NCBI GenBank assembly: GCA_963778545.1
Contig: CAVZUW010000007.1
Span: forward strand, 8,942 to 72,941
DNA: 64,000 nucleotides
Origin: an uncultured Actinomycetes bacterium
GTDB lineage: Bacteria > Actinomycetota > UBA4738 > HRBIN12
Direction: 5' to 3'
Positions within the stretch are counted from its first letter, which is position 1. Each line of letters begins with the position of its first letter. A program made the translations under genes and the position numbers. Positions 40,002-62,930 of this stretch are shown in pieces. The notes beneath the pieces were generated by a model. It worked only from the letters and a program-made list of their open reading frames with translations, had not been told where the DNA came from and did not search any database.

Positions 40002-40014
40002 CAGGAGGACGAAA

Positions 40015-40668: not shown

Positions 40669-40670
40669 TC

Positions 40671-41433: not shown

Positions 41434-41583
41434 CTAGGGCTCGTGTGATGCATCGGAGAGACCTTCGTCCGCGTGCGCATCCATCAGATGCTTCGAAAGT
41501 TCCTCCTGCGTTGGGAACACCTGCCCGCAGATGTGGCAGGTACCGGTCTCGCGGTCACCCTGCTGTGTTCCTCTCTCACTCAT
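41434..41583 (-). CDS. 49-aa classical C2H2 zinc-finger micro-protein
   Basis: Not in the track (<60 aa). MSERGTQQGDRETGTCHICGQVFPTQEELSKHLMDAHADEGLSDASHEP has C-x2-C-x12-H-x4-H spacing. Repeat R1a lies on its 3' side. Confidence 0.5.
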   Translation of the reverse strand: MSERGTQQGDRETGTCHICGQVFPTQEELSKHLMDAHADEGLSDASHEP

Positions 41584-41611
41584 CGGGTCCCCTTGCATAG
41601 ATAGACGGGCG

Positions 41612-42070: not shown

Positions 42071-42101
42071 CGTCTTCTCCTCGCTCCAGGGGCGGCCTCG
42101 A

Positions 42102-42878: not shown

Positions 42879-43196
42879 GGGTGAGCTTCTCCTCTCCTCT
42901 TCGCCGGTCGTGAAATGCACAAGCTGACTACCCAACCCGCGGCCGGGCAATCGAGATCGGTCATGCATCGTGGAAAAGATCCACGTTGGATGTCGCATCA
43001 CACACACGATGGGCAACGCCGTTGATCGCTTCGAGCTGAGTCTTCACGGGCTGGTATGCCAGGTCCGCTTGTGTGGACTTGGTTTTTCTGCTGGAGGTAG
43101 AGGGTAGAAACGAGGTCTTGCTACAAGGAGGACGTCCGCCTCGCCCTCGCAGGCGGGCGTCCTCCGCTTTGTCAGCTAGCCGGACAGAAGGAGCCG

Positions 43197-43409
43197 TTGA
43201 TGAGCGTCGAACTGCAACTCACCACGGGCGATGAAGAATGGACGTTCAATCTGGCCGAGCCGGTCGTTCCGAGGCCTGGTGACGCCTTGACTATCGACGA
43301 CCCGAACGGAGACCCGCGTGACTTCCGGGTGGTGAGCAGGAGGATCACCCTCACTGAGGGCGATACGGTGGGGTCAGTACTGGTCGGTATCGACCTGGAG
43401 CCAGCTTAA
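43197..43409 (+). CDS. small hypothetical protein
   Basis: 70 aa, with AAGGAG SD upstream. Repeat R1b follows it. Confidence 0.45.
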   Translation: MMSVELQLTTGDEEWTFNLAEPVVPRPGDALTIDDPNGDPRDFRVVSRRITLTEGDTVGSVLVGIDLEPA

Positions 43410-43429
43410 GGACGAATTCCCGCGCCGCA

Positions 43430-43548
43430 CATCCTTGGTTCCGCCTGGAACGGGTACACAGAAGTACGGCTGGTCCCGATGCCCGTCCACTCGGTTGGTC
43501 GGAGCCAGCCAGGAGCCTCGTGGCGGCACGCCGTGGCGGGGCTCCCCT
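43430..43548 (+). repeat. R1b: second copy of the ~120-nt structured repeat
   Basis: catccttggttccgcctggaacgggtacacagaagtacggctggtcccgatgcccgtccactcggttggtcggagccagccaggagcctcgtggcggcacgccgtggcggggctcccc. It has the same orientation as R1a and differs mostly by point substitutions. Confidence 0.85.
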
Positions 43549-43599
43549 TGGAGACGGGCGGGCGGTTTCGTTATCAGCTGCGCGGGACATAGTCCGGTC

Positions 43600-43929
43600 A
43601 TGACCTCACGCGAAGAACGGATGTCCCGGAACGAGGTCGCGTCCCGGGAGCTTAACGAGGAGATCGAGGAGGCCTACCAAGGTGAGCCACCGGCCAATCG
43701 GCTCGACATCGTCTGTGAGTGCGCTTTGAAGATGTGCGATCGCTCCATCGACATCACGATGGCCGAATACCGGATGGTGCGGAGTGATCTGCGGCAGTTC
43801 GCCATCGTACCGGAGCATCTCGCCGCCGATATCGAGCGGATCGTTGACGAGAACGACCGTTTCGCCGTCGTAGCTAAGCGTGAGGGAACGCCGGCGGACG
43901 TGGCGCGGGACGAGAATCCGCCAGGCTGA
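43600..43929 (+). CDS. hypothetical protein
   Basis: ATG 43600 in ORF 43435..43929: [29 protein letters not shown]...[23 protein letters not shown]... Confidence 0.4.
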
Positions 43930-43993
43930 ATGGCTGGGCCATGCGGAGTCCGCGCCGCACGGCGAGCCGGTGGTGTGAACGTGCGCCGTTGCG

Positions 43994-44066: not shown

Positions 44067-44234
44067 GTCGGCCGCCGGCCGGCCGGAAGTGTAGCAACCG
44101 CCCTTGGCCGACCTCGCGATCGCGAGTCCGGGAGCCGCCCGGGACACGGTGCGTGTCCGTGCGCTGGCACGCGCTCCGATCGATCGCCGACGGATTTCCC
44201 ACGCGACACTCGTCGTCTCGGTAGGGTGTGGGCC

Positions 44235-45662
44235 GTGCGCCCCCGCCCGCGACGCCGCTGGTTCCTCGCTCGCCCGGCCATGCTCACGATCGCGATCGCC
44301 GCGGTCGTGGCCGGGATCGGTGTCGCTCCGCCCGAGCGGACCCCATCGCCCGCACCGGCGGCCGCGGCGGCGGCCGGCATCGAGACGATCGATCACATCA
44401 TCATCGTCGTGCAGGAGAACCGCTCGTTCGACCACTACTTCGGGACGTATCCGGGCGCCGACGGCATCCCGAGGACCGACGGCAGGTGGGACGTCTGTCT
44501 CCCGGATCCCGTCCTCGAGCGATGCGCGCGCCCGTATCACTCGACGACGTACTTCGACGCGGGGGGCGCCCACAATCACTCCGCATCGGTGCGCGACGTT
44601 AACAGGGGTGAGATGGACGGCTTCGTCGAGACCGTGCGCCGGAGCGGCAACACGTGCAAGCGTCATCCGAACATCCGCCCGTGTCGAAAGACCAAGCGCG
44701 GTCCGGCGCGCCAACCCGACGTCATGGGGTTCCACACCCGCGCCGAGATCCCGAACTACTGGGCCTATGCGGATCAATTCGTCCTGCAGGACCGGATGTT
44801 CGCGCCGAGCGACTCGTGGACGCTGCCCGCGCACCTGTTCCTGACCTCCGCCTGGTCGGCGGATTGTTCGGATCTCCATGACCCGATGAGCTGTACGTCG
44901 GACCTGAACGACCCCGGCGACGGATGGAGGGCCGACAGCGGCGACCCCGCCCCGTACGCATGGACCGACATCACGTACCTGCTCCACGAGCACGGTGTGT
45001 CCTGGGCCTACTACGTGGGTGAGAAGACCTGCATCCGCCTCCCGTGCCCGACGGGGGAGGGCCGCCACACCACGTCCAATCAGCTCCCGATCGCGGGGTT
45101 CCGCACCGTGGAGCAGAACCATCAGCTCGGCAACATCCGGCCCCACGCCGACTACTTCGAGGCCGCGGCGGCGGGGACGCTCCCGTCGGTGTCCTGGATC
45201 ATGCCGTTCATCGGCGCGAGCGAGCATCCGCCGGGCGACATCCGGCCGGGCCAGGCCTGGGTGACCAAGGTCGTCAACGCCCTGATGCGGAGCCCGGAGT
45301 GGGAGTCGAGCGTGCTCTACCTGACGTGGGACGACTGGGGCGGCTTCTACGACCATGTCCATCCGCCCGGCGTCGACCAGAACGGGTTCGGGATCCGCGT
45401 CCCCGGGATCGCGATCAGCCCGTGGGTCAGCCCCGGGATGATCGATCACCAGACCCTGTCCTTCGACGCCTACCTGCGCTTCATCGAGGATCGTTTCCTG
45501 GGCGGGGAGCGCCTGGACCCGGCGACCCTCAGCCGGCCCGACTCGCGTCCGACCGTTCGAGAGACCGTGCCGATCCTCGGCGATCTGGCGACCGAGTTCG
45601 ACTTCACCCAGACGCCGATCCCGCCGCTGATCCTGGACCCGAAGCGAGCCGAAGCCGCCGGG
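44235..45662 (+). CDS. secreted phosphoesterase-family protein (phospholipase C / AcpA acid-phosphatase family), paralogue 1; 3' end uncertain
   Basis: GTG 44235 ([27 protein letters not shown]). Body: [26 protein letters not shown]...TLPAHLFL...SWIMP...[13 protein letters not shown]...[13 protein letters not shown]...[12 protein letters not shown]. The track ORF continues to 46394 only because there is no in-frame stop. Confidence 0.8.
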
Positions 45663-47239: not shown

Positions 47240-48700
47240 ATGCGTCCGAGCCCTCCCCGCCCAGCCCCGATCCTGATCACGTTCGCGCTGGCCGCGATGC
47301 TCGCGGCCGCGTGCACCTCGGCCTCCGGTCAGACCGGCCCGACGCCGAATGACACCGCCGGGCCCTCCGGATCGCCCTCGCCGGGCCCCAACCTGACGAA
47401 GCTCGAGCAGGCCAAGGAACACCTCAAGCACCTCGTGTTCATCGTCCAGGAGAACCGCTCGTTCGATCACTACTTCGGGACGTTCCCCGGCGCCGAAGGT
47501 ATCCCGATGCGCAACGGCAAGCCGACGGTGTGCGTGCCCGACCCGATCGCCGGACGATGCGTCCGGCCGTATCACACCACCGAGCAGCTGCAGGAAGGGG
47601 GTCCGCACGGCCAGCGTCATTCGGAGCTCGACGTCGACGGCGGCAAGATGGACGGGTTCGTCCGGACGGTGATCGACAGCCCCCTGTACTGCGCGGATCA
47701 CCGATCGGATCCGAAGTGCGACGGGTACCTCGGGCCGCAGGGTCAGCCGGACGTCATGAGCTACCACACGGCCAAGGAGATCCCGAACTACTGGCGGTAC
47801 GCCAAGGAGTTCGTCCTGCAGGACCACATGTTCGCGCCCGCCGATTCGTGGACGTTGCCGGCGCACCTGTTCCTGGTGTCGGCGTGGGCAGCCCATTGCG
47901 CGAACCCTCGGGACCCGATGTCCTGCTCGTCGAACCTCTACCTGAACGATGAGTTCCTGACGATGCGCGCGCACGAGGACGTCCCGCTCTGGGCGTGGAC
48001 GGACATCACGTATCTGCTGCACGAGCAGGGCGTCTCGTGGGGGTACTACGTCGGCGACGACACGTGCTTCTTCGACCCGTGCCCCGGTCACGGCCGCGAG
48101 AACACGGTCTCCCAGCAGAATCCGCTCCCGTGGTTCACGACGATCCGCGAGACGGGCCAGATGGACCGGATCCAGACGCACACCCAGTTCTACCGGCAGG
48201 CCGCGAACGGGAACCTGCCGTCGGTCTCGTGGGTCATGCCGTACAACGGGGTGGGGGAGCATCCCGCCTCGGGCGCGCCGATCTGGAAGGGTCAGCGCCA
48301 CGTCACCAACGTCGTGAACGCGCTGATGCAGGGTCCCGACTGGGACCAGACCGCGATCTTCCTGACATGGGACGACTGGGGCGGCTTCTACGATCACGTC
48401 GAGCCCCCGAGGGTCGACCTGAACGGATACGGGATCCGCGTCCCGGGACTGGTGATCAGCCCCTGGGCTCGTGCGGGCCTGATCGACTCGCAGACGCTGT
48501 CGTTCGACGCGTACCTCAAGCTGATCGAGGATCTGTTCCTGCAGAAGGAGCGGCTCAACCCGGCGACGATGAGCCGCCCGGACTCGCGACCCACGGTCCG
48601 CGAGAAGGTCGCGATCCTCGGCAACCTGCTGAAGGACTTCGACTTCACCCAGGATCCGATCCCGCCCCTGATCCTGGATCCGAATCCCAGCGGGACGTGA
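47240..48700 (+). CDS. secreted phosphoesterase-family protein (PLC/AcpA family), paralogue 2
   Basis: 486 aa. Lipoprotein-like signal (LAAMLAAAC). [26 protein letters not shown]... is collinear with paralogue 1 through ...[16 protein letters not shown]. Confidence 0.85.
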
Positions 48701-48765
48701 CGCTCTCACTCGGACGGATCGAACGCCGGCGCTTCTAGCTGTTCCCTGGTAGCGATCCGCGGTAG

Positions 48766-48836
48766 CTGGCCCGCCTGGATTCGAACCAGGACTAACTGAT
48801 CCAGAGTCAGCCGGGCTACCGTTACCCCACGGGCCA
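48766..48836 (-). tRNA. tRNA-Gln (anticodon CUG)
   Basis: Minus strand: TGGCCCG TG GGGT AACGGTA GCCC G GCTGA CTCTGGA TCAGT TAGT CCTGG TTCGAAT CCAGG CGGGCCA G. U1-A72 is typical of bacterial tRNA-Gln. Confidence 0.8.
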
Positions 48837-48847
48837 TGGTGTGACCT

Positions 48848-48867
48848 GCGGATATGTTACTATCCGC
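48848..48867 (+). promoter_or_regulatory. perfect inverted repeat GCGGATA-N6-TATCCGC between tRNA-Gln and the integrase start
   Basis: gcggatatgttactatccgc, flanked by CCATGG on both sides (48834-48839 and 48867-48872). Confidence 0.3.
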
Positions 48868-48909
48868 CATGGCACAGCGCTCGAACTCTCGATAACAGAG
48901 CGGAGCACC

Positions 48910-49839
48910 ATGGGATCGGTCACGGCGGCAAGGGTAGCAGCGCCCGCGATGCTCGACGTCATCCCCTCCTTCGAACGGCACCTCCGTGCCGAGAACAAGA
49001 GCCCGCGCACGATCCAGTCCTACACCGAGGCTGTCCGCAGGCTGCACGACTTCTGTTCGGCGAACGGGATGCCGCTTGAGGTGAAGTCCATCACCTCGGA
49101 GCACATCGAGTCCTTCCTCGCCGACCAGCTGGCACGGCTGCGACCCGCTAGCGCCCGGGCACGATTCGCCTCGTTGCGTCAGTTCTTCGCATGGCTCGCC
49201 AGCCGAGACGAGCGCGAGATCGAGCGCTCACCGATGGAGTCTTTGAAACCACCGAAGGTGCCACCTGTCCCTGTCCCGGTCCTGTCGCTCGAGCACCTGA
49301 AGGCGTTACTCCGGACGGTGGAACGCGAGGGTGGGTTCTACGGCCGTCGTGACGCCGCGATCACCCGAGCCTTCATCGACACCGGCTGCCGGTTGAGCGA
49401 GCTCTCCGGTCTCCGCGTCGGCGACGTCGACCTGGACCTGGGGACCATGACGTTCGTCGGTAAAGGTGGGGGCGAACGGCGGAACCCGATCGGGACCAAG
49501 ACGATCCGCTCGGTCGATAGGTACTTGAGGATCCGCGCGGCCCACCGCGACGCCGACTCCGAAGCCTTGTGGCTCGGGAGGTCGGGGCCGATGACGTCCT
49601 ACGGAATCGCCGAAGCCGTCAAGCGGCGCGGCCGAGAGGCTGGCATCGGGGATATCCACGTCCATCAGCTCCGTCACTCCGCCGCTCACTATCTGCGCCT
49701 GGCCGGCGCCGACGACGACGCCGTGCTCCGGCTGATGGGTTGGAAGGATCGGTCGATGCTGCACCGCTACGGCGCGTCCGCTGCCGACGAACGTGCCCGC
49801 GAGGTTCACAAGCGGCTGAGTCCGGGGGACCGGCTGTGA
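48910..49839 (+). CDS. tyrosine recombinase / phage-type integrase (XerC/XerD-like)
   Basis: ATG 48910. N-terminal SAM-like domain (FERHLRAENKSPRTIQSYTEAVRRL). Catalytic region: TGCRLSELSGLRVGDVDL...HQLRHSAAHYL...LMGWKDRSMLHRY. Confidence 0.9.
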   Translation: MGSVTAARVAAPAMLDVIPSFERHLRAENKSPRTIQSYTEAVRRLHDFCSANGMPLEVKSITSEHIESFLADQLARLRPASARARFASLRQFFAWLASRDEREIERSPMESLKPPKVPPVPVPVLSLEHLKALLRTVEREGGFYGRRDAAITRAFIDTGCRLSELSGLRVGDVDLDLGTMTFVGKGGGERRNPIGTKTIRSVDRYLRIRAAHRDADSEALWLGRSGPMTSYGIAEAVKRRGREAGIGDIHVHQLRHSAAHYLRLAGADDDAVLRLMGWKDRSMLHRYGASAADERAREVHKRLSPGDRL

Positions 49840-50493: not shown

Positions 50494-50963
50494 AACCCTT
50501 CGAAGAAGAAGGGGGGCGTTGGCGAAGCCCGTCCGCCGAGGGTCGCGAATTGAGCGCCGAGCTTTCACCAGAAGCCCCCGCGGCCGTACTCGATCGCGTT
50601 CGCGAGTACCGAAGGGCTGCCCGCAAAATCGTCGGGGCCGACTGGGTCGACGTGGCGCGGCGATGCGCTGGTCTGCTCGAGCTGGCGGACGCGGTGCGGT
50701 CGGAGCCTGATCTCATCGTCCGTCATTGGGCTGAGGGCGCGATCTGGGAGGAGTCGAAGGCCTTTCTCGGGATGGCTGATGAGGAACAGCCGCTCCCGCC
50801 CGAGTCGTACGAACACCGGCAGCGGCGTCTACGGCTGATGGGTGAGGACCGGTGTGGCCGATGCCATTCGGTGATCGCATCGGAAGCCGAGCTCGCGAGG
50901 TGGGCCAGGCTCCGCCGAGACGCAGCCGATCGACGCCGCGTGTGCGAGGAGGCCATCAAGTGA
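50490..50963 (+). CDS. hypothetical protein (CxxC near the C-terminus)
   Basis: 157 aa, overlapping its neighbours on both sides (operon-like). Confidence 0.45.
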   Translation: MKPFEEEGGRWRSPSAEGRELSAELSPEAPAAVLDRVREYRRAARKIVGADWVDVARRCAGLLELADAVRSEPDLIVRHWAEGAIWEESKAFLGMADEEQPLPPESYEHRQRRLRLMGEDRCGRCHSVIASEAELARWARLRRDAADRRRVCEEAIK

Positions 50964-52291
50964 GCGCCGAGCCGATGGCCGTCGCTGAACGGTTCGCCGG
51001 CCTGGGGCGCGTGCTCGACGACGTCTGCAGATTCGTGCGTCGGTACGTGATCCTGAGCGACGACGCAGCCACGATCGTGACGGTCTGGGTGGCGCATGTG
51101 TTTGCATTCAGAGCGTTCGAGTTCACGCCGTACCTCGTGGTCACTTCTGCCACGAAGCGATCGGGGAAGAGTCGCCTCCTCGAAGTGCTCGAGGTCGTCC
51201 TCGAGCCGAAGCGCTCCGTATCGACGGCAAACATCTCCGCCGCGAGCCTGTTCCGGCTGATTGATGCGAACCCTGGGGTTGCCGTGCTCTTCGACGAGAT
51301 CGACCGGATCCCGAAGGACAAGGCCGAGGATCTCTGGGGCCTGATCAACTCAGGCTGGCGCCTCGGCGGGAAAGCTCACCGGCAGTCCGGCGTGAAGATG
51401 GAGACGCTCACAGCGTTCTCCACGTTCTCGCCGAAGCTTCTGTGCGGCATCGGACGACCCGTGCCAGATACCGTGGACGATCGCGGACTCAAGATCCGGA
51501 TGGAGCGACGGCTTCCCTCCGAAAGCGTCGAACGCCTCCGCCTGCGGAGGGCTGCTGAGGAGGTAGCTCCGATCCGCGAGGCGCTGGCCACGTGGGCTGG
51601 CGATGGAACGATTGAACGGCTCTCCCACGCAGAGCCAACCTTCCCCGCCTCGATGACCAACGACCGGCTTATGGACGTGGCCGAGCCGCTGTTCGCGATC
51701 GCCGACGAAGCTGGCGGGGAGTGGCCCAGCCGCGTTCGGCGTGCCGTGTTCGACCTCGAGGAGGCGGCCGGGCACGTGGCTGAGGAGGAGCTCGGCGTTC
51801 TCGCCCTGCGACACGTCCTCGATGCATTCAGGACCAAGCGGGTCACCAAGCTGTTCACCGATGACCTACTCGCTTACATGGTGACATTGGACGACGGACC
51901 ATGGGCCGAGTGGTGGGGAGACAGGGTCGCCTCCGGTCAGACAGTTGGGCCGGCCCGACGGCTCCGCAAGCTGCTCGATCGGTTCGAAAAGGTCGAGCCG
52001 ACCCAGGTGCGCCTCGGCGAGGTGACGAGGAAGGGCTACCACCTCGAGCCGGTCCAGGCTGCGGGCTCGCGGTACCTATCCGAAACGTCCGAAACTAGCG
52101 AAACGCCCCTGGCCAGGCCTGTTTCGGATGTTTCCCCTGTTTCGGATACCCAAGGTGAGCGAGCACGAGAGCCAGGCTGGGTTCGCTTGCAGCGCGAGGC
52201 CGGCGAGGACCCCGAGCAGGACGAGGCAGCAGCCCTCGCTCGCCTGAAGACCGAGCTCGGCGCGACGGAGATCTCGAGGTCCCCGGCATGA
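50960..52291 (+). CDS. DUF3631-family protein (mobile-element replication/partition-associated)
   Basis: GTG 50960 overlaps the upstream stop (GTGA): ...LDDVCRFVRRYVILSDDAATIVTVWVAHVFAFRAFEFTPYLVVTSATKRSGKSRLLEVLE...VLFDEIDRI... is as I recall for DUF3631. Confidence 0.6.
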   Translation: MSAEPMAVAERFAGLGRVLDDVCRFVRRYVILSDDAATIVTVWVAHVFAFRAFEFTPYLVVTSATKRSGKSRLLEVLEVVLEPKRSVSTANISAASLFRLIDANPGVAVLFDEIDRIPKDKAEDLWGLINSGWRLGGKAHRQSGVKMETLTAFSTFSPKLLCGIGRPVPDTVDDRGLKIRMERRLPSESVERLRLRRAAEEVAPIREALATWAGDGTIERLSHAEPTFPASMTNDRLMDVAEPLFAIADEAGGEWPSRVRRAVFDLEEAAGHVAEEELGVLALRHVLDAFRTKRVTKLFTDDLLAYMVTLDDGPWAEWWGDRVASGQTVGPARRLRKLLDRFEKVEPTQVRLGEVTRKGYHLEPVQAAGSRYLSETSETSETPLARPVSDVSPVSDTQGERAREPGWVRLQREAGEDPEQDEAAALARLKTELGATEISRSPA

Positions 52292-52464
52292 CCCCTTCCG
52301 TCGCGTTCAACGCTTCGGTCGCGCCCGTCGAGAGGAGTGCGGCGGGGGTACCGGCGACCCGAGGGGGAGTAGGGGCTTCCCCCTCGACCGCGCGCGCCCG
52401 GAGACCCTCTGGGAAGTCCATCGGACTGTGTACGGGTCTGGATTCCTACGCTTGGGAGGTGGAT

Positions 52465-52938
52465 ATGGCAGGTAAGGGGCCGGCGCCGAAGCTGCCCGAT
52501 CAGCGACGTCGCCGCAACGCAACCCCCGGGTTCAAACGCTTGTCCCACGAAGGGCGCTTCGGGGATCCGCCTGCATCGCCGCTGACTACGCCCAGCGCCG
52601 CCGAACTCAACCAGTGGCGCGAGTTGTGGTCACTTCCCCAAGCGGTCGAGTGGGAGCGGATACGTTGCGAGCCCATGGTGGCCCTGTACGTCCGGGTCTT
52701 CGTGTCCGTTACCACCGAACTCGACCCGAAGATGTTGAACGAACTCCGCCAGCTGGACGCGAAGATCGGCCTGTCCCCGCGTTCCATGCTCGACCTCAGG
52801 TGGGAGATCGACGAAGCCATCGTCGAGACCGAGCCCGGAACGGAGTCGAACGGGCATCGCGTCTTCGTGCCGGACGGCCTGCATCACCCATCGGCGCCGA
52901 ATGGCGTACCGACGCCGCCTTACGTGCGTCCAAAATAG
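52465..52938 (+). CDS. P27-family phage terminase small-subunit-like protein
   Basis: ATG 52465 follows GGGAGGTGG: MAGKGPAPKLPDQRRRRN...AAELNQWRELWSLPQAVEWERIRCEPMVALYVR...LRQLDAKIGLSPRSMLDLRWEI. The layout matches P27 TerS as I remember it. Confidence 0.45.
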   Translation: MAGKGPAPKLPDQRRRRNATPGFKRLSHEGRFGDPPASPLTTPSAAELNQWRELWSLPQAVEWERIRCEPMVALYVRVFVSVTTELDPKMLNELRQLDAKIGLSPRSMLDLRWEIDEAIVETEPGTESNGHRVFVPDGLHHPSAPNGVPTPPYVRPK

Positions 52939-53012: not shown

Positions 53013-53047
53013 CTAGACCGCCGGGCTCGCCGTGGCGCGCGGACTAG
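53013..53047 (+). repeat. R2 copy 1 (CTAG-associated ~38-nt intergenic repeat)
   Basis: ctagaccgccgggctcgccgtggcgcgcggactag. Confidence 0.6.
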
Positions 53048-53127
53048 CTGCAGGCAGCAGGCGCTAGCCGAGGACCGGAGTCGCTCCCGGCCTAGGCCGT
53101 GAAGGATGGACACCGAGCTTCAGCGGA

Positions 53128-53382
53128 TCAGCGTCCGCGCTCTTGCTCCTCCACCTTGCGGCGCTCTCGGGCCTCGCGTTGCATCTCCTCGACAATCTGG
53201 TCACCGGCGGCGAGCGTCGCCTCCGCTTCCAGGATCTGGGAGATGTACAACCGGATGCCCCGTCGGGCGACCCATGCCAGGGGGCGCTCCATGTCGTCTG
53301 CGATCGCCTGAAGTGCGCGTAGATCCCGAGGGCTGAGCTGGACCATCAGCCGCTCCGTAAGCCTTTCCTCCTGGTCTGACAT
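53128..53382 (-). CDS. ribbon-helix-helix (CopG/Arc-like) DNA-binding protein
   Basis: 84 aa: ERLMVQLSPRDLRALQAIADDMERPLAWVARRGIRLYI (beta-strand, helix, helix pattern), then a charged tail. Confidence 0.55.
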   Translation of the reverse strand: MSDQEERLTERLMVQLSPRDLRALQAIADDMERPLAWVARRGIRLYISQILEAEATLAAGDQIVEEMQREARERRKVEEQERGR

Positions 53383-53436
53383 GAGGTGAGCCTACCGCCT
53401 TTGTACTGCTTCCACAACCCTGGTAGTCTCTCTGTT

Positions 53437-53880
53437 GTGCAACGCTACAGAGCGCAGCGAGTAGAGGGAGAGAGAACAAAGCGCGTGATCTGGGTGGCCC
53501 TGGTGGCCGCCATCGCCGCGGTCGCGACTGCCGCACCGGCCCTGGCGGTGACGCCGCAGGACTGGACGACCAGGTACGAGAACAACAAGATCAGATGGTC
53601 CGACCGCACTACCTGCACGCTGATCGATGCCTCGGGTGCGTGCGCGTTGGATTCGACGATCTCCGTCGAATGGAAGATCAAGAACAGAACCCAATACCGC
53701 CTCGAAGCCGCCTGTGCCGCCGGTGTGACGGCTGGCGACAGGATATGGCAGGCCGAGTGGGTGCTCCGACTGAAACCGAAGACAACCAAGACGCGGGTCG
53801 TGCAGACGGGCTTTCGGTGGGCACCGGAGATCGACTGGGTGTGGGGAGACTTCCGCTGCGTCTTCGAGCGCTTGTCGTGA
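53437..53880 (+). CDS. secreted hypothetical protein
   Basis: Signal peptide VIWVALVAAIAAVATAAPALAVTP. The mature part is Cys- and Trp-rich. Confidence 0.5.
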   Translation: MQRYRAQRVEGERTKRVIWVALVAAIAAVATAAPALAVTPQDWTTRYENNKIRWSDRTTCTLIDASGACALDSTISVEWKIKNRTQYRLEAACAAGVTAGDRIWQAEWVLRLKPKTTKTRVVQTGFRWAPEIDWVWGDFRCVFERLS

Positions 53881-53893
53881 GGCGAGGAGCGGC

Positions 53894-54067
53894 ATGAGGA
53901 TCGAGCACGGACAGAAGGTGCGTCAGTACGACGTCGATCGTGTTTGCCGTGTACTCGGTTGTGCCGTTCAACTCTCCCGATACAACCCGGAGGAGTACTG
54001 CGGGGTCCACGCGCAGCAGAGATTCGAGACGCTGCCGCGCAGGCGGGGCGCTCGCGGTAGGAACTAG
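53894..54067 (+). CDS. 57-aa Cys-rich small ORF
   Basis: Not in the track. ATG 53894 follows GAGGAG: MRIEHGQKVRQYDVDRVCRVLGCAVQLSRYNPEEYCGVHAQQRFETLPRRRGARGRN. It shares a CTAG stop with the convergent gene. Confidence 0.3.
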   Translation: MRIEHGQKVRQYDVDRVCRVLGCAVQLSRYNPEEYCGVHAQQRFETLPRRRGARGRN

Positions 54068-54304
54068 CGTTCGCGGTCGGCTTCCGCGCAACATCCCGAC
54101 GAGCACCGCTCGCAACACACGGTCCTCCTCGCAGTCGATCAGCAACTCGGCGAAGGTGCGGCTCTGCGGGTAGCTCCAGAACTCCTTGATTCGCTCGGCA
54201 CGCTCGAAATCGGGAAGCATCAGGACGTGGAGAAGCTCCGCGCCGGGAGCCAAGGACCGAACAGACGATTCGAGAGGCTTAGAGTTAAGGTCCTGCCGGG
54301 CCAT
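54064..54304 (-). CDS. ELLIDCEEDR-module protein, copy A (longest copy; 1-nt frame problem in the last ~8 codons)
   Basis: ATG 54304: MARQDLNSKPLESSVRSLAPGAELLHVLMLPDFERAERIKEFWSYPQSRTFAELLIDCEEDRVLRAVLVGMLR. A 1-nt shift then gives EADRER-stop, matching the tails of the other copies. Confidence 0.4.
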
Positions 54305-54374
54305 GTCACCGGTATGGAGCAAACTTGCGTACCACCTCGGACGACGTCCTGCTCGCCAAGTGTCCGGCCTCTTC

Positions 54375-54989
54375 ATGGATGCTGGACTGCGCCCCTATCG
54401 GCCGCTTCACGTGGAGTCAACTGAGAGCTGGTCGTCGGCCTACGGAGGAGGTGGGCGCGACTATTCCGGACCTGCTGAAGCTGCTCGGTACGGCATCCTC
54501 GCCGCCTACCTGAGGCTCGTTGAGGAGTCCCCCTCGATCCTCGATTTCGGTTGCGGAACAGGGCTCGTGTTGGAGCGCATCCAGGGGATTCCGTTTCGCG
54601 ACTACGTGGGGATCGACTCCTCACCCGTCGCGATCGAGCTGGCCCGGGAAAGGGTGCCCGGGGTGGGTACGTTCGTTGTGGGTGAGGACGTGCCGCCAAC
54701 CGCCGGTCCGTTCGATGTAATCATCTGCAACGAGGTCTTGTACTACCTGTCCGACCCTGGTGCCGTGTTGGACCGGTTCAGAACGGTCCTCCGCCCCGGT
54801 GGGAGCCTCCTGACGTCGATCTTGCGCCATCCCGGAGACCTGAGCCTCCATCGGATGATTGATGCTCGCTTCCAACGCGTGTACGGGGTCGAGGTCCGGA
54901 ATCTCATCAGGAGGGGTACGGGACGTTGGCCTCACACACGGTACCGGCGTCGCGTGGCTTGGCACCGGTTGCCAAGGAACTCTTCATAG
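54375..54989 (+). CDS. class I SAM-dependent methyltransferase
   Basis: ATG 54375: ...SILDFGCGTGLVLERI (motif I)...YVGIDSSPVAIELA...FDVIICNEVLYYL...LRPGGSLL. Confidence 0.7.
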   Translation: MDAGLRPYRPLHVESTESWSSAYGGGGRDYSGPAEAARYGILAAYLRLVEESPSILDFGCGTGLVLERIQGIPFRDYVGIDSSPVAIELARERVPGVGTFVVGEDVPPTAGPFDVIICNEVLYYLSDPGAVLDRFRTVLRPGGSLLTSILRHPGDLSLHRMIDARFQRVYGVEVRNLIRRGTGRWPHTRYRRRVAWHRLPRNSS

Positions 54990-55051
54990 CTCCGCTAGGC
55001 AGCACATCCCGCCTCGGATTGGTCTGCCCATCTCTCTGCACCGGTAGGTCG

Positions 55052-55156
55052 CTAGGAAGGACCCGAGCGGTCGCCCTCTCGCAGCATTCCGACCAGCACC
55101 GCCCTCAGCGTCCGGTCCTCCTCGCAGTCGATCAGCAGCTCGAAGGTCCGACGCAA
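55052..55156 (-). CDS. ELLIDCEEDR module, copy B (short ORF from TTG, or a read-through extension of the zinc-finger ORF)
   Basis: (L)RRTFELLIDCEEDRTLRAVLVGMLREGDRSGPS-stop. It is in the same frame as the upstream zinc-finger ORF, separated by a single TGA (55160-55162). Confidence 0.35.
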   Translation of the reverse strand: MRRTFELLIDCEEDRTLRAVLVGMLREGDRSGPS

Positions 55157-55159
55157 TGG

Positions 55160-55304
55160 TCACCCGGAGGATGAGGCAGGCTCCTCCTCAACCCCGTGAG
55201 CTTCATTGAGGTGCTTCACGAGGTCTTCTTGCAGGGCGAAGGACTGGTCACAGAAGTGGCACTTGCGGACCGGGTTCGCCCATCTCCATCTCGTGTTCGC
55301 TCAT
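55160..55304 (-). pseudogene. second C2H2 zinc-finger micro-protein (ATG and finger are in different frames)
   Basis: ATG 55304 gives MSEHEMEMGEPGPQ.. and then a stop. The adjacent frame reads ..VRKCHFCDQSFALQEDLVKHLNEAHGVEEEPASSSG-stop, with the same C-x2-C-x12-H-x4-H spacing as 41434..41583. Confidence 0.4.
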
Positions 55305-55463
55305 CCTCGGTCTCCTCCGTGTTCGCTCTTTCGCCGGAGTGCTGCCACGCAACGCCGCCCTCCCAACTCGTCTCCCTTGTTGGGTAGGCCTTACCCAGGC
55401 TCCAGAGAGGCACACCACCAGTGAGGTCGGCGGTCCCGTGCGGCGCTCGCTCGCGGATGAGTC

Positions 55464-55546
55464 CTAGGAAGGACCCGAGCGGTCGATCTCCCGCAGCATC
55501 CCGACGAGCACCGCTCTCAGCGTCCGATCCTCCTCGCAGTCAGGCG
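55464..55546 (-). pseudogene. ELLIDCEEDR module, copy C (5'-truncated, abutting R2 copy 2)
   Basis: ..DCEEDRTLRAVLVGMLREIDRSGPS-stop. There is no start codon. Upstream it runs straight into the R2 repeat. Confidence 0.45.
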
Positions 55547-55585
55547 CTAGACCGCCGGGTCGGCGTGCTGCGCGGGCTCCGGGTG
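55547..55585 (+). repeat. R2 copy 2
   Basis: ctagaccgccgggtcggcgtgctgcgcgggctccgggtg. Confidence 0.6.
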
Positions 55586-55632
55586 CGCTCGCGTTGCACC
55601 AGGAACGTCTGGACGATTCGGCCTATCAGCCG

Positions 55633-56001
55633 CTACTCGACGATTGTCGCCTCGCCCGTCATCTGCGGATGGATGGTGCACACGAATTCGTACGTACCCG
55701 GCTCCACCGCACCAGAGATCGGCTCGGGACCGTTGAAGATCTCACCGGGGGCGATGGGGATGTTGATCTGGGTGCCGACCATCGTGAACGTGTGGCCGAC
55801 ATCGTCCTCATTCACGACCGAGATGCCTTGGGAAGCGGTCGCCTTGAAGCAAGCCGGGTAGAAGGCGAGTCTCGCGATTGTGATCGTGAAGCCTGGCTCC
55901 TCGCTGGTCAGATTGGCGCAATCCTCCGATGATCCGCCGTCATCCCCGCACGCGGGAAGCAGAGCCGCAACCGCCATGAGCACCACCAGAGCCTTCCGCA
56001 T
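55633..56001 (-). CDS. cupredoxin (type-1 blue-copper, plastocyanin/amicyanin-like) lipoprotein
   Basis: 122 aa. Lipobox ALLPAC. Copper ligands H (VGHTF) and C-x2-H-x2-M (FVCTIHPQM). Confidence 0.75.
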   Translation of the reverse strand: MRKALVVLMAVAALLPACGDDGGSSEDCANLTSEEPGFTITIARLAFYPACFKATASQGISVVNEDDVGHTFTMVGTQINIPIAPGEIFNGPEPISGAVEPGTYEFVCTIHPQMTGEATIVE

Positions 56002-56020
56002 ATCAACTCCAAGCCCTCGC

Positions 56021-56152
56021 CTAGGACGAACGTTCCGACTCCCGCAGCATGCCTACGAGCACCGCCCGCAGCGTCCGGTCCTGCTCGCAGTCGATCAGGA
56101 GTTCGGCGAAGGTGCGGCTCGCGGTCAGGTCGCGGAGGCGTGCCGTGAGCAA
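56021..56152 (-). CDS. ELLIDCEEDR module, copy D (43-aa ORF from TTG)
   Basis: (L)LTARLRDLTASRTFAELLIDCEQDRTLRAVLVGMLRESERSS-stop. An in-frame TGA lies 7 codons upstream of the TTG. Confidence 0.35.
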   Translation of the reverse strand: MLTARLRDLTASRTFAELLIDCEQDRTLRAVLVGMLRESERSS

Positions 56153-56221
56153 CTCCAGCCCAGCTCCTTGTCAGGGTTTCGCACGGGCTAGTCGGGGGCT
56201 TATGGTGGCGAGGGTGGTCGG

Positions 56222-56320
56222 ATGATCGCTGCCATCAGCATCGGGATCATCATCATCGTCGCCGTAATAGTCGCTGCGCTCGCGATCACGTACTTCATCC
56301 TGAAAGGATCGCCTCGGTAG
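56222..56320 (+). CDS. 32-aa hydrophobic micro-peptide
   Basis: MIAAISIGIIIIVAVIVAALAITYFILKGSPR. It has the same style as the peptide at 36274..36387. Confidence 0.3.
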   Translation: MIAAISIGIIIIVAVIVAALAITYFILKGSPR

Positions 56321-56678
56321 CCGCAAGCACTAGGGCCTCGCGTCGCTCCACGCGGATGCCTAGGGGTTGGCGGTGGTCGTGCCAGCGTCGCCAGGCGACT
56401 AGCTCATTCGCACCCTGAGGACACCGGCTCGAGTCAGTCCTTCGGCTAGCGCCAGGACTTCTCTGAGCGCCAGACCTTCGCCCACGCCGCGACCTCGCGC
56501 CGATCCCATAACCGACCCTGTCCCTCGCGTCCGACGAAGGGGGAAGCCAGACTCGTCGCTAGGAGTTCAGCACCACCGCCCGACCGCCGATCGAACGCCG
56601 GGGACGAAGCAAGCGCGAAGGGGTTGACTGTCCTCGGCGAAGCGGAGCACGGTGTGGCGGATCGGGTTCGAGACTGTT

Positions 56679-56706
56679 GGCTCGCCGTGCGGCGCGGGCT
56701 CCGGTG
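56679..56706 (+). repeat. R2 copy 3 (left end diverged)
   Basis: ggctcgccgtgcggcgcgggctccggtg. Confidence 0.6.
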
Positions 56707-56729
56707 AGACCAACGTCCAGCTAGTCGCC

Positions 56730-56882
56730 TCAGAGGATCCTTCCGACAGCCCCAAGCAGCCCGGCCATCATCGACCACCCGACGTAGGCGAGCAGGCATA
56801 TCCACACGAACGCCAGGATGAAGGCGGCCGGAGCGAGGAGGACCATTCCGGCCTCACCCAGGTTGTACGCAAGCTTGCTCAT
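56730..56882 (-). CDS. 50-aa two-helix membrane micro-protein
   Basis: MSKLAYNLGEAGMVLLAPAAFILAFVWICLLAYVGWSMMAGLLGAVGRIL. Confidence 0.35.
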   Translation of the reverse strand: MSKLAYNLGEAGMVLLAPAAFILAFVWICLLAYVGWSMMAGLLGAVGRIL

Positions 56883-56953
56883 CAGAAGAGACATACCCGC
56901 CGATCTTCGGCGGAAACGCGCTAGCCAAGCGTAACGACTGCAGTGGCAGTTGC

Positions 56954-57160
56954 TCAGCGCGAGAGCGCAAACAGCAGCACCAGGAATCCTGCACAGACCG
57001 CCAGTGCTCCGATCAGCGTGGCTGTTCGCTCTCGTTTGCGACTGACCTCGTTCTGCGGGCCTCGGAGGAACCCCAACGCCCCGGCAGCGATGAACCCTGC
57101 GCCTACCGCGCCGAAGGCTGCGCCGATCTGCGTGAGCTGCGTGGAAGTCGCGGCCAGCAC
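56954..57160 (-). CDS. 68-aa two-helix membrane protein
   Basis: Track ORF: ...IGAAFGAVGAGFIAAGALGFL...TATLIGALAVCAGFLVLLFAL. Confidence 0.4.
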   Translation of the reverse strand: MLAATSTQLTQIGAAFGAVGAGFIAAGALGFLRGPQNEVSRKRERTATLIGALAVCAGFLVLLFALSR

Positions 57161-57258
57161 GAATCGATCACCCCTAGGTCCACCACACTAGTGACGCGAC
57201 ATGACGGTTGGGAACCCAATTCCAGGCTCACCGTTGCGGCGCGAGATATAGGGGCCGA

Positions 57259-57426
57259 CTAGCTGAGGCCGATGGGCGAGACTTCAGGCACGTCCACGTC
57301 CCCGGTGAAAGCCGGTGAGGGTTCGGGGACGGGATGCTTCGGTGCTGGGTCGGTCATCGTCAGGAACCCCACCAGGAACGCTGCGACGATGATGACCGCG
57401 TAGACGATGCGTCTGCGCGGCGTCAT
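57259..57426 (-). CDS. 55-aa membrane-anchored micro-protein
   Basis: MTPRRRIVYAVIIVAAFLVGFLTMTDPAPKHPVPEPSPAFTGDVDVPEVSPIGLS. Confidence 0.35.
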   Translation of the reverse strand: MTPRRRIVYAVIIVAAFLVGFLTMTDPAPKHPVPEPSPAFTGDVDVPEVSPIGLS

Positions 57427-57487
57427 CGACGTGCAGGGGCATGGTCCACCCCGACATGGTCAAGCCTCAAGCCCGCCGTTACAAGTG

Positions 57488-57526
57488 CTAGACGCCGGCT
57501 CGCCGTGCGGCGCGGGGCTCCCGGTG
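57488..57526 (+). repeat. R2 copy 4
   Basis: ctagacgccggctcgccgtgcggcgcggggctcccggtg. Confidence 0.7.
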
Positions 57527-57557
57527 GCTCGTTGGACGGCCGTGATGATAGGACCTA

Positions 57558-58493
57558 GTGTTCGGGCATCCGATGTTGGGCCTGTCTCGGGCACTCATGG
57601 CGCTATCACTTGCTCTGATACTCCCCGCCACACACGCGCAGGCCACACCCACGTCGTGCCTCGGAAGGCCGGCGACAATCGTCGGCACGCCAGGAGATGA
57701 CGACCTGAGGGGGACCCTCGGACTCGACATCATCGTAGGACTCGGGGGCAACGACAGGATCCACGGGTCAGGAGGCCATGATTGGATCTGCGGGGGTAAG
57801 GGCACCGACCGGCTTAGTGGGGGCGGCGCGTGGGATCTCATCAGTGGGGGTGCTCTCGCCGATTACATCGCCGAGGAGGCAGGCTCCGACCAACTCTCCG
57901 GAGATTCGGGGGACGATGTCATTCATGGTGGTGCCGGTGGCGATTCGATTTTCGGCGGCAAAGGTGATGACGAGGTGATAGGGGGCCGCGGGTACGACTT
58001 CGTGAGTGGGGACGACGGGAATGACCGGCTAAGCGGCGGCGCCCGCGACGACGAGTTGGCGGGGGGCGCGGGAGACGATGCGGTCGATGGTGGTGATGGG
58101 AAGGGAGACACCCTCTCGTTCTACGATGACCCAGATCCCGTGGTCGTCGACCTCATCGCAGGGACGGCGACGGGCGAAGGCACAGACAGTCTGACGGCAA
58201 TCGAGGACGTGTTCGGTTCGAACGCTGATGACGTGATTTCCGGAGACAGCAGCGACAACTCCCTCAGCGGCGGCTTCTCCGGGAACGACAGGTTGGACGG
58301 GCGCGAGGGCGATGACGGGCTCAGCGGTCAGGCAGGTGATGACGATCTGGTCGGCGGTGAAGGAGACGACAATCTGTCCGGGTCGGAAGGGAACGACTCT
58401 CTTGATGGTGGAAACGGAGCAGACTTCCTGAACGGAGGCCCCGGCACGGACACGTGCGCGAACGGCGAGAACAACTCCGAATGTGAAGGCTGA
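57558..58493 (+). CDS. secreted calcium-binding RTX (hemolysin-type GGxGxD nonapeptide repeat) protein
   Basis: Signal LGLSRALMALSLALILPATHAQA. Many repeats follow: GGNDRIHGSGGHDWICGGKGTDRLSGGG..., GGAGGDSIFGGKGDDEVIGGRGYD..., GGEGDDNLSGSEGNDSLDGGNGADFLNGGPGTD. Confidence 0.8.
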   Translation: MFGHPMLGLSRALMALSLALILPATHAQATPTSCLGRPATIVGTPGDDDLRGTLGLDIIVGLGGNDRIHGSGGHDWICGGKGTDRLSGGGAWDLISGGALADYIAEEAGSDQLSGDSGDDVIHGGAGGDSIFGGKGDDEVIGGRGYDFVSGDDGNDRLSGGARDDELAGGAGDDAVDGGDGKGDTLSFYDDPDPVVVDLIAGTATGEGTDSLTAIEDVFGSNADDVISGDSSDNSLSGGFSGNDRLDGREGDDGLSGQAGDDDLVGGEGDDNLSGSEGNDSLDGGNGADFLNGGPGTDTCANGENNSECEG

Positions 58494-58502
58494 TCGAGCG
58501 TT

Positions 58503-58539
58503 CTACCGCCGGCTCGCCGTGCGGCGCGGGCTCCCGGTG
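58503..58539 (+). repeat. R2 copy 5
   Basis: ctaccgccggctcgccgtgcggcgcgggctcccggtg, followed by cacctag. Confidence 0.7.
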
Positions 58540-58631
58540 CACCTAGCGAAGCCTCGTCAGTGGCGAGCTGCACCTCGGGTGGCTGGCAGACGTGATGTCC
58601 AACCTTACCCCTGCTTCTCCACGTTGGTTCC

Positions 58632-59297
58632 CTAGAACAGATCCCGGACCAACCGGACGAGCAATGCCCCGATCGTCAGGATTAGTGCGACGCCGCCTGC
58701 ACCGATCACGATACCGATGGCAAGGACCACGACGTCGCCGAGGATGATCCCGAGGGCAACGACAACAGCACCCAACGCCGGGAACGTGTCAAGGCCCGAG
58801 AAGGGGGGTGCGAACGCTGCAGCGGCCGCCAGGATGATGACGATGAGTCCGAGCAGCCGTAGGAACCACCGTCGCTCGAACAGTTGAGCCCAGCGGGGTC
58901 GCGAGAATCGCTCGAACCATCGGATACGCCGCACCATGAATGGGATGGCCTTGCCGGTCGTGCTGTCACCGAGCTCGCGGTTCCGCCACTTCGCGGGGAG
59001 CCAGATCGTCCTTGCGCCGAGCACCATCTCCGCACCTAGCAGCGCGGTGATGGCCTCGAACACGTGGGTAATCCCGCCGGTGGGTAGGGGCAACGCAGGC
59101 AGGAACATCAAGAGCAGGATCGTGACGGCGAAGCTCCTTTCCCCGAACAGATCGCCCAAGCGGCCGAGGGTCTTGGGCGTGTCGGACCTGAGCCAGTGCT
59201 CAAGCTCGGCGCTGAAGGGCTGTTCGGCCATGACGAGATCGGGGTCTGCTGCGGCAGGGTGCACAGCGAGCAGGTGCCCAGACATCGGCATTGGCAA
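58632..59297 (-). CDS. ExoD-family (exopolysaccharide synthesis) membrane protein
   Basis: 221 aa: LGRLGDLFGERSFAVTILLLMFLPALPLPTGGITHVFEAITALLGAEMVLG...WLP.KW is as I recall for ExoD. Confidence 0.6.
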   Translation of the reverse strand: MPMPMSGHLLAVHPAAADPDLVMAEQPFSAELEHWLRSDTPKTLGRLGDLFGERSFAVTILLLMFLPALPLPTGGITHVFEAITALLGAEMVLGARTIWLPAKWRNRELGDSTTGKAIPFMVRRIRWFERFSRPRWAQLFERRWFLRLLGLIVIILAAAAAFAPPFSGLDTFPALGAVVVALGIILGDVVVLAIGIVIGAGGVALILTIGALLVRLVRDLF

Positions 59298-59364
59298 ACA
59301 CGAGGTCGACGGTCCAGCGTCAGCCCAGCTCAGACGACACTCGCCTCAGCGCTTGTCCTCGCCT

Positions 59365-59420
59365 CACGTCAGCATCCCGACCGGCACAGCAGGAGCGTCC
59401 GGTCATCCCCGCAGCCGATC
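59365..59420 (-). pseudogene. ELLIDCEEDR module, copy E (degenerate remnant)
   Basis: The minus strand atcggctgcggggatgaccggacgctcctgctgtgccggtcgggatgctgacgtg aligns with atcgactgcgaggaggaccggacgctgagggcggtgctggtcggaatgctgcgagag of copy B. Confidence 0.35.
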
Positions 59421-59646
59421 GCCGGCTCCCGTTCCCGACCGGCTCCCGGCTGCGCGTTGTCAAGACGACGAGGCCGCCATGCAGGACGGGGGTCGAATCG
59501 CCGGGCCTCAGCCCGTCCACGGCTCCCTTGCCGCTCTCGACGCCGTGGGTGGATATTGGGTGGGGCAGATCTTCAGGTTGAGCTCCGGCGAGGAACGAGG
59601 ACGCGATTTCCCCAGGGCTCAGCCTCTTGGAGGCAACCGCTCCTGC

Positions 59647-59665
59647 AACCGCCGGCTCGCGGTGG
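59647..59665 (+). repeat. R2 copy 6 (partial)
   Basis: aaccgccggctcgcggtgg. Confidence 0.35.
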
Positions 59666-62433: not shown

Positions 62434-62930
62434 CGCCCGCAAAGGCAACGAATCGAACGAAGGGGACGGCACAGAATGGCCATGGCCCCATCTCGAGCGT
62501 GATGGGTAAGGCCGGTGACGCTGCATCGGTGGTGGGGTCCGGTGCCAAGAAGACGGGATCCGGGGCAAGGAAGGTCGTCGGCGCCGTCGCCAAGAACCCC
62601 TTGCTGGCCGCCACCGGCGCGGCAGTGCTGGGCGCGGCGATCGGCGGGACCGCTCTCGCTCGCGAACGCAGGCAGAAGAACAAGAAGTCGTCGAGCAAGA
62701 GGGCTCCGGCGAAGAAGTCGTCGAGCAAGAAGACCTCGGCCCGAAAGAGCGGCGCGAGGAAGTCGCCCGCACGTTCGTCGGCCAAGAAGCCATCAACCAG
62801 GAAGACGTCAACGAAAACGAGCGCGAAGAAATCCCCGGCCCGCAAGCGGACTTCGTCGTCAAAGCGCAGCGGCACCAAGCGATCAACAGCGACGCGCAAA
62901 CGGACCGGCTCTCGCTCGAGCAGCTCTTAA
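62430..62930 (+). CDS. basic-tail (K/S/R-rich, histone-like) membrane-associated protein
   Basis: 166 aa. Its start overlaps the upstream stop. ...LLAATGAAVLGAAIGGTAL is followed by KKSSSKRAPAKKSSSKKTSARKSGARKSPARSSAKKPSTRKTSTKTSAKK... Confidence 0.55.
   Translation: MTPAKATNRTKGTAQNGHGPISSVMGKAGDAASVVGSGAKKTGSGARKVVGAVAKNPLLAATGAAVLGAAIGGTALARERRQKNKKSSSKRAPAKKSSSKKTSARKSGARKSPARSSAKKPSTRKTSTKTSAKKSPARKRTSSSKRSGTKRSTATRKRTGSRSSSS

Follow-up and report, generated by a model that had tools for sequence, protein, structure and literature searches.

Here we report that R2, a short repeat that punctuates an island in a 64,000-nt stretch of DNA from an uncultured Actinomycetes bacterium (GenBank assembly GCA_963778545.1, contig CAVZUW010000007.1, positions 8,942 to 72,941; referred to below as the window), consists of the orphaned last 13–16 codons and the TAG stop codon of a small conserved gene, which on the minus strand reads …GHWAHREPAPHGEPAV. 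A first-pass annotation of the window, made from the letters of the DNA, had described R2 as an intergenic repeat; it had recognized neither the gene nor a second, longer repeat, R3, which shares the array and is the 3′ part of another small gene. From the layout of the array there is a hint that gene modules are stacked in a manner not described before. The reading that we prefer, and to which we give an even chance, is that conserved gene ends served as anchors for recombination and that R2 and R3 are its joints or scars, small integrase-less modules having accreted in the process.

Results

R2 copies and their distribution

The repeat was found at the places where it had been reported, and its presence there is far beyond chance: with three mismatches or fewer, five matches to the 24-nt core GGCTCGCCGTGCGGCGCGGGCTCC were counted in the window and none in 100 shuffles. 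The reported copies are all in the plus orientation and lie between open reading frames (ORFs), as had been described. The 39-nt consensus written for them did not hold, as it gave an ungapped match to only one copy. A search with a profile built from clean copies returned plus-strand copies at 55546–55589, 56669–56712, 57489–57526 and 58500–58546.

The closest match to the family is the copy at 58500–58546, the minus strand of which reads HREPAPHGEPAV followed by the stop. It lies 7 nt past the stop codon of an RTX gene and 86 nt from that of an ExoD gene, and 58505 and 58540, the borders of R2, are the exact points at which dozens of metagenome contigs diverge. The copy at 57488–57526 has one extra G that breaks the frame and is placed between two divergent gene starts. 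At 56669–56712, one C is missing, the 5′ part has diverged, and the stop of a 54-aa membrane ORF is 18 nt away. The remaining plus-strand copies are a diverged one at 55546–55589, 4 nt from an R3 3′ fragment; another diverged one at 53013–53047 (family D9; about 86% identity over 22 nt plus one indel), which follows a terminase-small-subunit-like gene; and a 17-nt partial copy at 59647–59664. The repeat is not confined to the range reported for it. A further good copy was found on the minus strand at 43938–43980, where it follows the 3′ end of tRNA-Glu(ctc) by 13 nt and the stop codon of the ORF at 43435–43929 by 9 nt, together with a minus-strand remnant at 37019–37040 that has an internal deletion of 15 nt and is orthologous to an intact R2 in the relative L136 (relatives and other loci are cited here by L number). 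A degenerate R2-like sequence at 36170–36203 (minus strand) is regarded as tentative. The flanks of the copies in the array do not align at all, and the copies are separated by single-base indels; conservation forms a plateau of about 45 nt that drops to background at both sides.

R2 is concentrated in islands. Five to six copies are present in the 6.7-kb array, as compared with eight in 701 kb of related DNA that was not selected for R2, a density that is about 70-fold lower. All eight of those copies sit in two island zones, next to tRNA-Glu or tRNA-Gln, and the profile search detected no copy in 31.5 kb of core DNA of the window. The enrichment of CTAG noted in the first-pass annotation was borne out as well: the tetranucleotide occurs 27 times between 52.9 and 59.7 kb, or 3.97 per kb against 0.25 per kb in the core at 4–35.5 kb (16 times denser). 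In the window core (4001–35500) CTAG is strongly avoided, with 8 occurrences seen against 25.6 expected from trinucleotides, and the islands do not show this avoidance. Just past the best R2 copy, a 70-nt segment (58554–58622) has an inverted match at 40972–41041 with 79% identity.

The 19-nt core of R2 was also scanned for in one genome per species. Many hits were chance matches; about 25 had the full R2 flanks, and all of these came from uncultured actinobacterial metagenome-assembled genomes (MAGs), sometimes with two or three copies per 8 kb in one orientation. Matches to the 19-mer in Streptomyces were rejected as R2, being unrelated and having different conserved flanks. Their context, GGTACSSGSAGT-19mer-…CGTNCGGGCCG, is found once per genome (L003, L004, L018, L021 and about 40 other loci) and has no match in Rfam.

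R2 is the 3′ end of a small gene

The minus-strand frame …REPAPHGEPAV, followed by a stop, recurs in about 30 copies of R2. The TAG stop after …GHWAHREPAPHGEPAV thus accounts for the CTAG of the repeat. In several loci the similarity extends over at least 100 nt, and the opposite strand is then an ORF ending …CxKCGLDVHW..GLGV.PGHWAHREPAPHGEPAV and a stop. This gene family, of 57–100 aa, is common in uncultured soil Actinomycetota. A protein search gave 88 clusters of 49–79 aa, plus longer forms with an N-terminal helix; the divergence among them is protein-like, with conserved Cys and His residues and a CxxC…HW…GHW motif. The full-length genes in the fetched loci differ by synonymous changes in the tail and stop with either TGA or TAG. 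The ORF, the protein clusters and the synonymous tail changes together identify R2 as the end of a real gene. The 1-nt indels between copies, from which the first-pass annotation had concluded that R2 was unlikely to be coding, are real, and the conclusion holds for these copies, though not for the sequence from which they derive.

No intact R2 gene is present in the window, which holds solely orphan 3′ fragments, some of them frame-broken. The protein matched no family in Pfam, PHROGs or NCBIfam, and its structure model was of low confidence. The peptide encoded by R2 is predicted to be disordered, yet it is the best conserved part of the gene; among full-length genes the tail is modestly more conserved than the body (79% vs 70%). 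R2 was also met in a second, non-coding context, where it is followed by a hairpin-forming extension and the indels are not multiples of three. In 24 contigs the same R2 protein was found, but these proved to be one syntenic locus and were set aside, since they are therefore uninformative on mobility.

A second gene end, R3, shares the array

R3 occurs in the array as five minus-strand pieces of 60–190 nt, and corresponds to the 3′ part of a gene that ends …AELLHVLMLPDFERADRIGEFWSYPQSRTFAELLIDCEEDRTLRAVLVGMLRE and a stop. The piece at 54069–54254 covers the entire conserved region (…AELLHVLMLPDFERAERIKEFWSYPQSRTFAELLIDCEEDRVLRAVLVGMLR…) and has lost the usual stop. Three pieces are orphan 3′ fragments, covering model positions 88–189 (55065–55163), 124–189 (55477–55542, abutting R2) and 95–189 (56028–56122); the fifth, also a 3′ fragment, is decayed (59364–59421).

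The R3 protein has about 78 aa and is represented by 3,694 clusters at 90% identity, all labelled ‘hypothetical’. No match was obtained for it in Pfam, PHROGs or NCBIfam. Its predicted structure is a confident five-helix bundle, with a pLDDT (predicted local distance difference test) of 90.5, and no relatives were found by structure in PDB and BFVD or by sequence in PDB. Searches with the protein in phage and plasmid collections, and with the R2 and R3 DNA cores in IMG/VR, gave no true hits. Most loci with R2 also have R3. The two occur together in many actinobacterial MAGs, as a rule no more than a few kb from both a tRNA gene and the gene for a tyrosine integrase. In contigs of soil and rhizosphere metagenomes, the depth was 5,000–9,600 for the R3 core, about 260 for R2 and 0–30 for the cargo genes, and both repeats are tens to hundreds of times deeper in soil metagenomes than the intervening genes. 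That the repeats are gene ends also explains why R2 and R3 are points at which assemblies of these genomes break.

Orientation, junctions and breakpoints

The array contains six R2 and five R3 pieces, and all 11 have one orientation, R3 being co-oriented with the reading frame of R2. Co-orientation of the two was seen in all but one of about 20 loci. The pieces also meet in recurrent ways. The TAG of R2 is directly followed by NGCCGAGCT…, a 3′ part of R3, in the window (55546/55542), L095 and L070, and an R2|R3 junction is present in L032 too. In the other arrangement, the stop of R3 is followed within 1–30 nt by an R2 orphan (L112, L089, L062, L095, L033, L120).

Fragments with the 3′ end of the gene predominate. 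In loci that were not chosen for R3, 22 pieces of R3 were 3′ fragments and eight were 5′ fragments; for R2 the numbers were about 30 and two. The truncation points are clustered: 18 of 30 for R2 fall at positions 121–140 of the 174-nt model, where a uniform spread would place about 14%, and those of R3 gather within a 30-nt stretch, TTCGCCGAGCTGCTGATCGACTGCGAG. The R3 fragments always extend to the stop of R3. In several metagenome contigs a foreign sequence, GGGCTAGGCCGAAGGACCAATTCAAT…, abuts the breakpoint zone of R3 (L192, 2340–2419; loose ends at window positions 55541 and 54140 in runs X3 and X4); possibly it is one end of an insertion element with R3 as its target.

Genes of the array

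The array modules measure 0.4–2.5 kb and carry one to three genes each. In order, a Xer-like recombinase, a DUF3631 protein (50852–52291, plus strand) and a terminase-small-subunit-like protein (52288–52938, plus strand) are followed by the R2/R3 modules, beside tRNA-Gln; the DUF3631 and terminase-like genes are the backbone of an integrated element. Three small ORFs at 53128–54067 (84 aa, minus; 164 aa, plus; 57 aa, plus) have no family match. The cargo comprises an S-adenosylmethionine-dependent methyltransferase (54186–54989, plus strand), a cupredoxin-like lipoprotein flanked by an R3 fragment and an R2 copy (55633–56001, minus), three membrane micro-protein ORFs of 54, 68 and 55 aa between two R2 copies (56730–57426, minus), an RTX calcium-binding repeat protein, also between two R2 copies (57558–58493, plus), and an ExoD-family membrane protein with an R3 fragment on one side and an R2 copy on the other (58632–59297, minus). 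Neither the ExoD nor the cupredoxin protein had an exact match on record. The cupredoxin, RTX and ExoD genes had been named in the first-pass annotation and stood, and the methyltransferase is added to them; a ribbon–helix–helix assignment was not confirmed by Pfam. A relative of the RTX protein, 44% identical, also abuts R2 in L109. Five of seven modules are co-oriented with R2 and R3, with the RTX and methyltransferase modules opposite, and no promoter-like site was found. Farther along the window, two tandem 30-nt units with 86% identity occupy 62682–62740, within a probable ORF.

The island and its relatives

The island in the window is hypervariable and is inserted beside tRNA-Gln, and its own integration site is not R2. 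It begins a few nt past the 5′ end of tRNA-Gln(ctg) (48765–48836, minus strand), not in the 3′ end of the gene, and its left end is formed by the gene for the Xer-like tyrosine recombinase (48841–49839, plus strand). The best matches of this protein are the XerC, XerD and XerA models, and it belongs to the Xer/integron-integrase branch; against the integron-integrase models it scored 50.7 bits for TIGR02249 (cut-off 265) and 26 for NF011946 (cut-off 435). The island continues past the end of the window, and no tRNA-derived att repeats were found for it.

For comparison, 80 related metagenome loci were fetched through the neighbouring phosphoesterase gene. Module presence and absence differed among them, the states being an empty site, a 2.4-kb insert or another R2/R3 array. 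In four relatives that are 93% identical (L136, L137, L138 and L197) the site is empty, and tRNA-Gln leads directly to core genes. Two others (L139 and L147, 88%) have the 2.4-kb insert, which is bounded by a short GTGGGG-type repeat. In L145 (89%) the integrase is cut at 49024 by a piece of R3, after which comes an R2/R3 array with entirely different cargo. As occupancy differs among the relatives, the modules are not syntenic there. Empty and occupied sites share only the GTGGGG-type core, at 48836–48851 in the window, 7512–7524 in L138, and 7719–7731 and 10150–10162 in L139. Truncation of the integrase was seen in relatives at four points (48972, 49024, 49172 and 49298), and R2/R3 arrays persist with a truncated integrase in L145, L141, L175 and L192.

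R2 lies 1–4 kb from a tRNA gene and an integrase in L110, L069 and L089, and other R2 loci carry unrelated integrases. In L033, R2, R3 and a cupredoxin gene are contained in a 2.3-kb element without an integrase, between perfect 58-nt direct repeats of a tRNA-Arg 3′ end (2950–3007 and 5282–5339). An R3 gene in L070 is interrupted by an 880-nt insert; this insert has an R2 gene at its end and is accompanied by a 5-nt duplication.

Another segment of the window, 37040–43938, is bordered on both sides by minus-strand pieces of R2. It measures 6.9 kb, has a G+C content of 63% as compared with 70%, carries genes for a SpoIIE-type phosphatase, a STAS protein, a hemerythrin and an MscS-like protein, and ends 13 nt from tRNA-Glu; the homology of the relatives stops exactly at the 3′ end of tRNA-Glu. 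Nearby, 44376–45645 is a second copy of the phosphoesterase family, with about 70% DNA identity to 47240–48700. In the 93%-identical relatives the alignment jumps from about 44145 to 45648, and they lack the stretch of about 44146–45647 and with it this second copy. The G+C content falls to 54–58% at the window's left end (1–4000).

Folding tests and rejected element classes

The six R2 copies were folded on both strands. The z-scores of the 12 RNA folds ranged from −1.6 to +1.5, with no shared structure, and single-stranded DNA folds of R2+R3 composites and of R3 fragments (z −0.8 to +1.8) were no better than shuffles. Seven terminator-like sites were found at 52.5–60.5 kb, none of which overlaps R2, and Rfam at gathering thresholds detected only the two tRNAs in the window. 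Because no copy folds better than shuffled sequence, R2 is not a repetitive extragenic palindromic (REP) element or a bacterial interspersed mosaic element (BIME), nor a terminator or an attC hairpin. The membership of R2 in one superfamily with repeat R1, which had been proposed, did not survive either: R1 is a true hairpin, has a conserved 5′ flank of its own and bears no relation to R2. It is GC-rich, has a 10-bp stem (GGGAGCCCCG…CGGGGCTCCC) after a conserved GTCCACTCGGTTGGTCGGA, and is present in two copies, at 41325–41363 and 43508–43546.

Two further classes were rejected. The ends of R2 are not complementary and its flanks show no constant duplication, unlike those of a miniature inverted-repeat transposable element. 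In an array of clustered regularly interspaced short palindromic repeats (CRISPR), repeats of 28–37 nt alternate with spacers of about 30–40 nt, whereas the R2 copies are 0.8–2.5 kb apart with genes between them. Joints between R2 copies in Logan contigs were discarded as a sign of excision, for they rest on just 21–43 nt inside the repeats, and the contig-level read data held no informative junction. A search of the literature on integron-like cassettes in Actinobacteria yielded nothing relevant.

Discussion

R2 as a gene end is a matter of observation; its role as a recombination joint is what we infer. On the reading that we prefer, R2 and R3 fragments would be the joints at which single-gene modules were added, swapped or lost. 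Incoming DNA with an R2 or R3 gene end would recombine with a resident copy, either site-specifically through a trans-acting enzyme or merely anchored by short homology, and every event would leave one further orphan gene end in the same orientation. Small modules that lack an integrase would thereby accrete, in analogy to attR sites that carry a target gene's end. The features expected of accretion are found here: the repeat is a gene 3′ end with its stop, direct copies flank each module, and modules are present or absent among relatives. The orientation, the 3′ excess and the clustering of breakpoints are the signature of integration into a gene 3′ end by DNA with a surrogate gene end, followed by accretion.

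A number of observations pull the other way, and several of them are what passive debris would leave behind. In this alternative R2 and R3 are multi-copy genes of junk-rich islands, and random deletions and illegitimate joins left the pieces behind as pseudogene fragments that had no part in forming the array. We hold it to be less probable, though by no means negligible. The window array is not headed by an intact R2 gene; the intact copy of R3 is found downstream and not upstream of its fragments, and loci differ in polarity. The breakpoints are clustered but not nucleotide-exact, and the adjacent integrase has its own site beside tRNA-Gln. Truncation of that integrase at four different points indicates that illegitimate recombination is frequent here. 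Some module borders are not at R2, as contigs with a homologue of ExoD lose homology at 58631, and in L141 and L175 the orthologous R2 copies show no more conservation than the DNA flanking them. No recombinase was consistently linked to R2 or R3 in the loci compared, and no excision or circular junction was seen in the contig-level read data. Debris is further suggested by the coexistence of full-length genes, pseudogenes (an in-frame stop in L070, a frameshift in L115) and fragments of many lengths, and by the modest excess of tail over body conservation in the full-length genes. This counter-evidence is why passive debris stays a serious rival. What debris does not readily explain is that all the pieces in the window share one orientation, as they do in nearly all loci, that 3′ fragments outnumber 5′ fragments about 3:1 for R3 and by more for R2, that the truncation points are strongly skewed to a short zone, and that identical composite junctions recur in different genomes. 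Uniform orientation, 3′ excess and clustered breakpoints argue for a directional process over random decay. A more specific version of such a process, which we consider rather improbable, is an undescribed system by which uncultured soil Actinomycetota capture gene modules, with R2 and R3 as its two attachment sites. Small circles, each made up of an R3 end, cargo and an R2 end, would then enter and leave resident R2/R3 gene ends by means of a trans-acting recombinase, and ‘R3-cargo-R2’, ‘R2|R3’ and ‘R3-R2’ would be the occupied, inter-cassette and empty forms. Such a system would be a functional analogue of integrons, but with double-stranded sites derived from gene ends.

The cassette-like layout noted in the first-pass annotation stood in so far as R2 does delimit small-gene modules after a tyrosine recombinase, in a hypervariable region. 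That the Xer-like recombinase (48841–49839) inserts and excises cassettes at attC-like R2 sites, as on an integron platform, is nevertheless very unlikely. The recombinase gene heads the array, its protein belongs to the appropriate branch and the modules are of suitable size, with one to three genes; but single-stranded R2, R3 and R2+R3 fold no better than shuffled sequence, the scores of 26–51 bits fall far below the cut-offs of 265–435, the junctions of the island use the GTGGGG-type core, loci with a truncated integrase still have arrays, the integrases at other R2 loci are unrelated, and the orientation of the cargo is mixed. Still less probable is that orphan copies are kept as a short functional motif, a protein-binding or regulatory site such as an operator to which the R2 or R3 protein binds. 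Inside R2, GGCTCGCCGTG and GGCTCCCGGTG do form two direct half-repeats of 11 nt that lie 18 nt apart, and the strong conservation of a peptide predicted to be disordered would fit; yet indels between copies alter the spacing of the half-sites, positions relative to promoters are inconsistent, and the predicted five-helix bundle of R3 has no structural match that would support DNA binding by either protein. We give least credence to a REP/BIME-like or terminator element, that is, a structured extragenic repeat that ends or stabilises transcripts, which the first-pass annotation had considered equally possible. Most copies do lie a few to about 90 nt past a stop codon, often between convergent genes, but R2 has neither palindrome nor shared fold, terminator-like overlap or Rfam family, its copies are sparse in the 701 kb and confined to island zones, and the copy at 57488 is upstream of both neighbouring genes.

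Two very abundant unnamed families of small genes (3,694 and 88 clusters) thus punctuate hypervariable arrays of uncultured soil Actinomycetota, a phylum that to our knowledge is largely without integrons. If the conserved ends are recombination anchors, they mark the stacking and exchange of single accessory genes without integrons, and R2 and R3 would make such flexible regions easy to find in metagenomes by a simple sequence tag. If they are only debris, the annotation is still corrected, the ‘intergenic repeats’ being gene ends.

Comparison with known systems

Like the REP and BIME elements of enterobacteria, R2 is short, GC-rich, extragenic and often located after stop codons. REPs, however, are palindromic, genome-wide and linked to RAYT transposases, and R2 is none of these. 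The pdif modules of Acinetobacter plasmids are one- or two-gene modules bounded by short sites of Xer-type recombinases. The pdif sites are 28-bp XerC/XerD sites in alternating orientation, whereas R2 lacks such a dyad and is always direct. With integron arrays (IntI, attI, attC) the present array has in common a recombinase gene at one end, short modules, a recurring site and diverse cargo. It differs in that there is no attC palindrome or fold, the recombinase is not IntI, the sites come from coding sequence, and the orientation of the cargo is mixed.

The REP13E12 repeats of Mycobacterium tuberculosis hold the attB of the prophage phiRv1 (PMC9317374). Here too, an actinobacterial repeated element that contains a gene is an integration target. 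REP13E12 is about 1.4 kb long and has few copies, its integrase is a known serine recombinase, and it forms no arrays of orphan ends.

In the ICESt1/ICESt3 family, integrated elements and cis-mobilizable elements (CIMEs) accrete at att sites that include the target gene's end (PMC5704250). As in that family, co-oriented direct repeats copy the 3′ end of a gene, no integrase is present in the modules, tRNA genes and integrases adjoin the arrays, and occupancy varies between strains. Here, by contrast, no consistent cognate recombinase was found; the target genes are multi-copy and travel with the arrays, with no intact target gene at the head of the one in the window; and two gene ends, R2 and R3, alternate around modules that are tiny and often consist of a single gene. 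The arrangement is a variant of an accretion or cassette array, built from the ends of two undescribed small genes.

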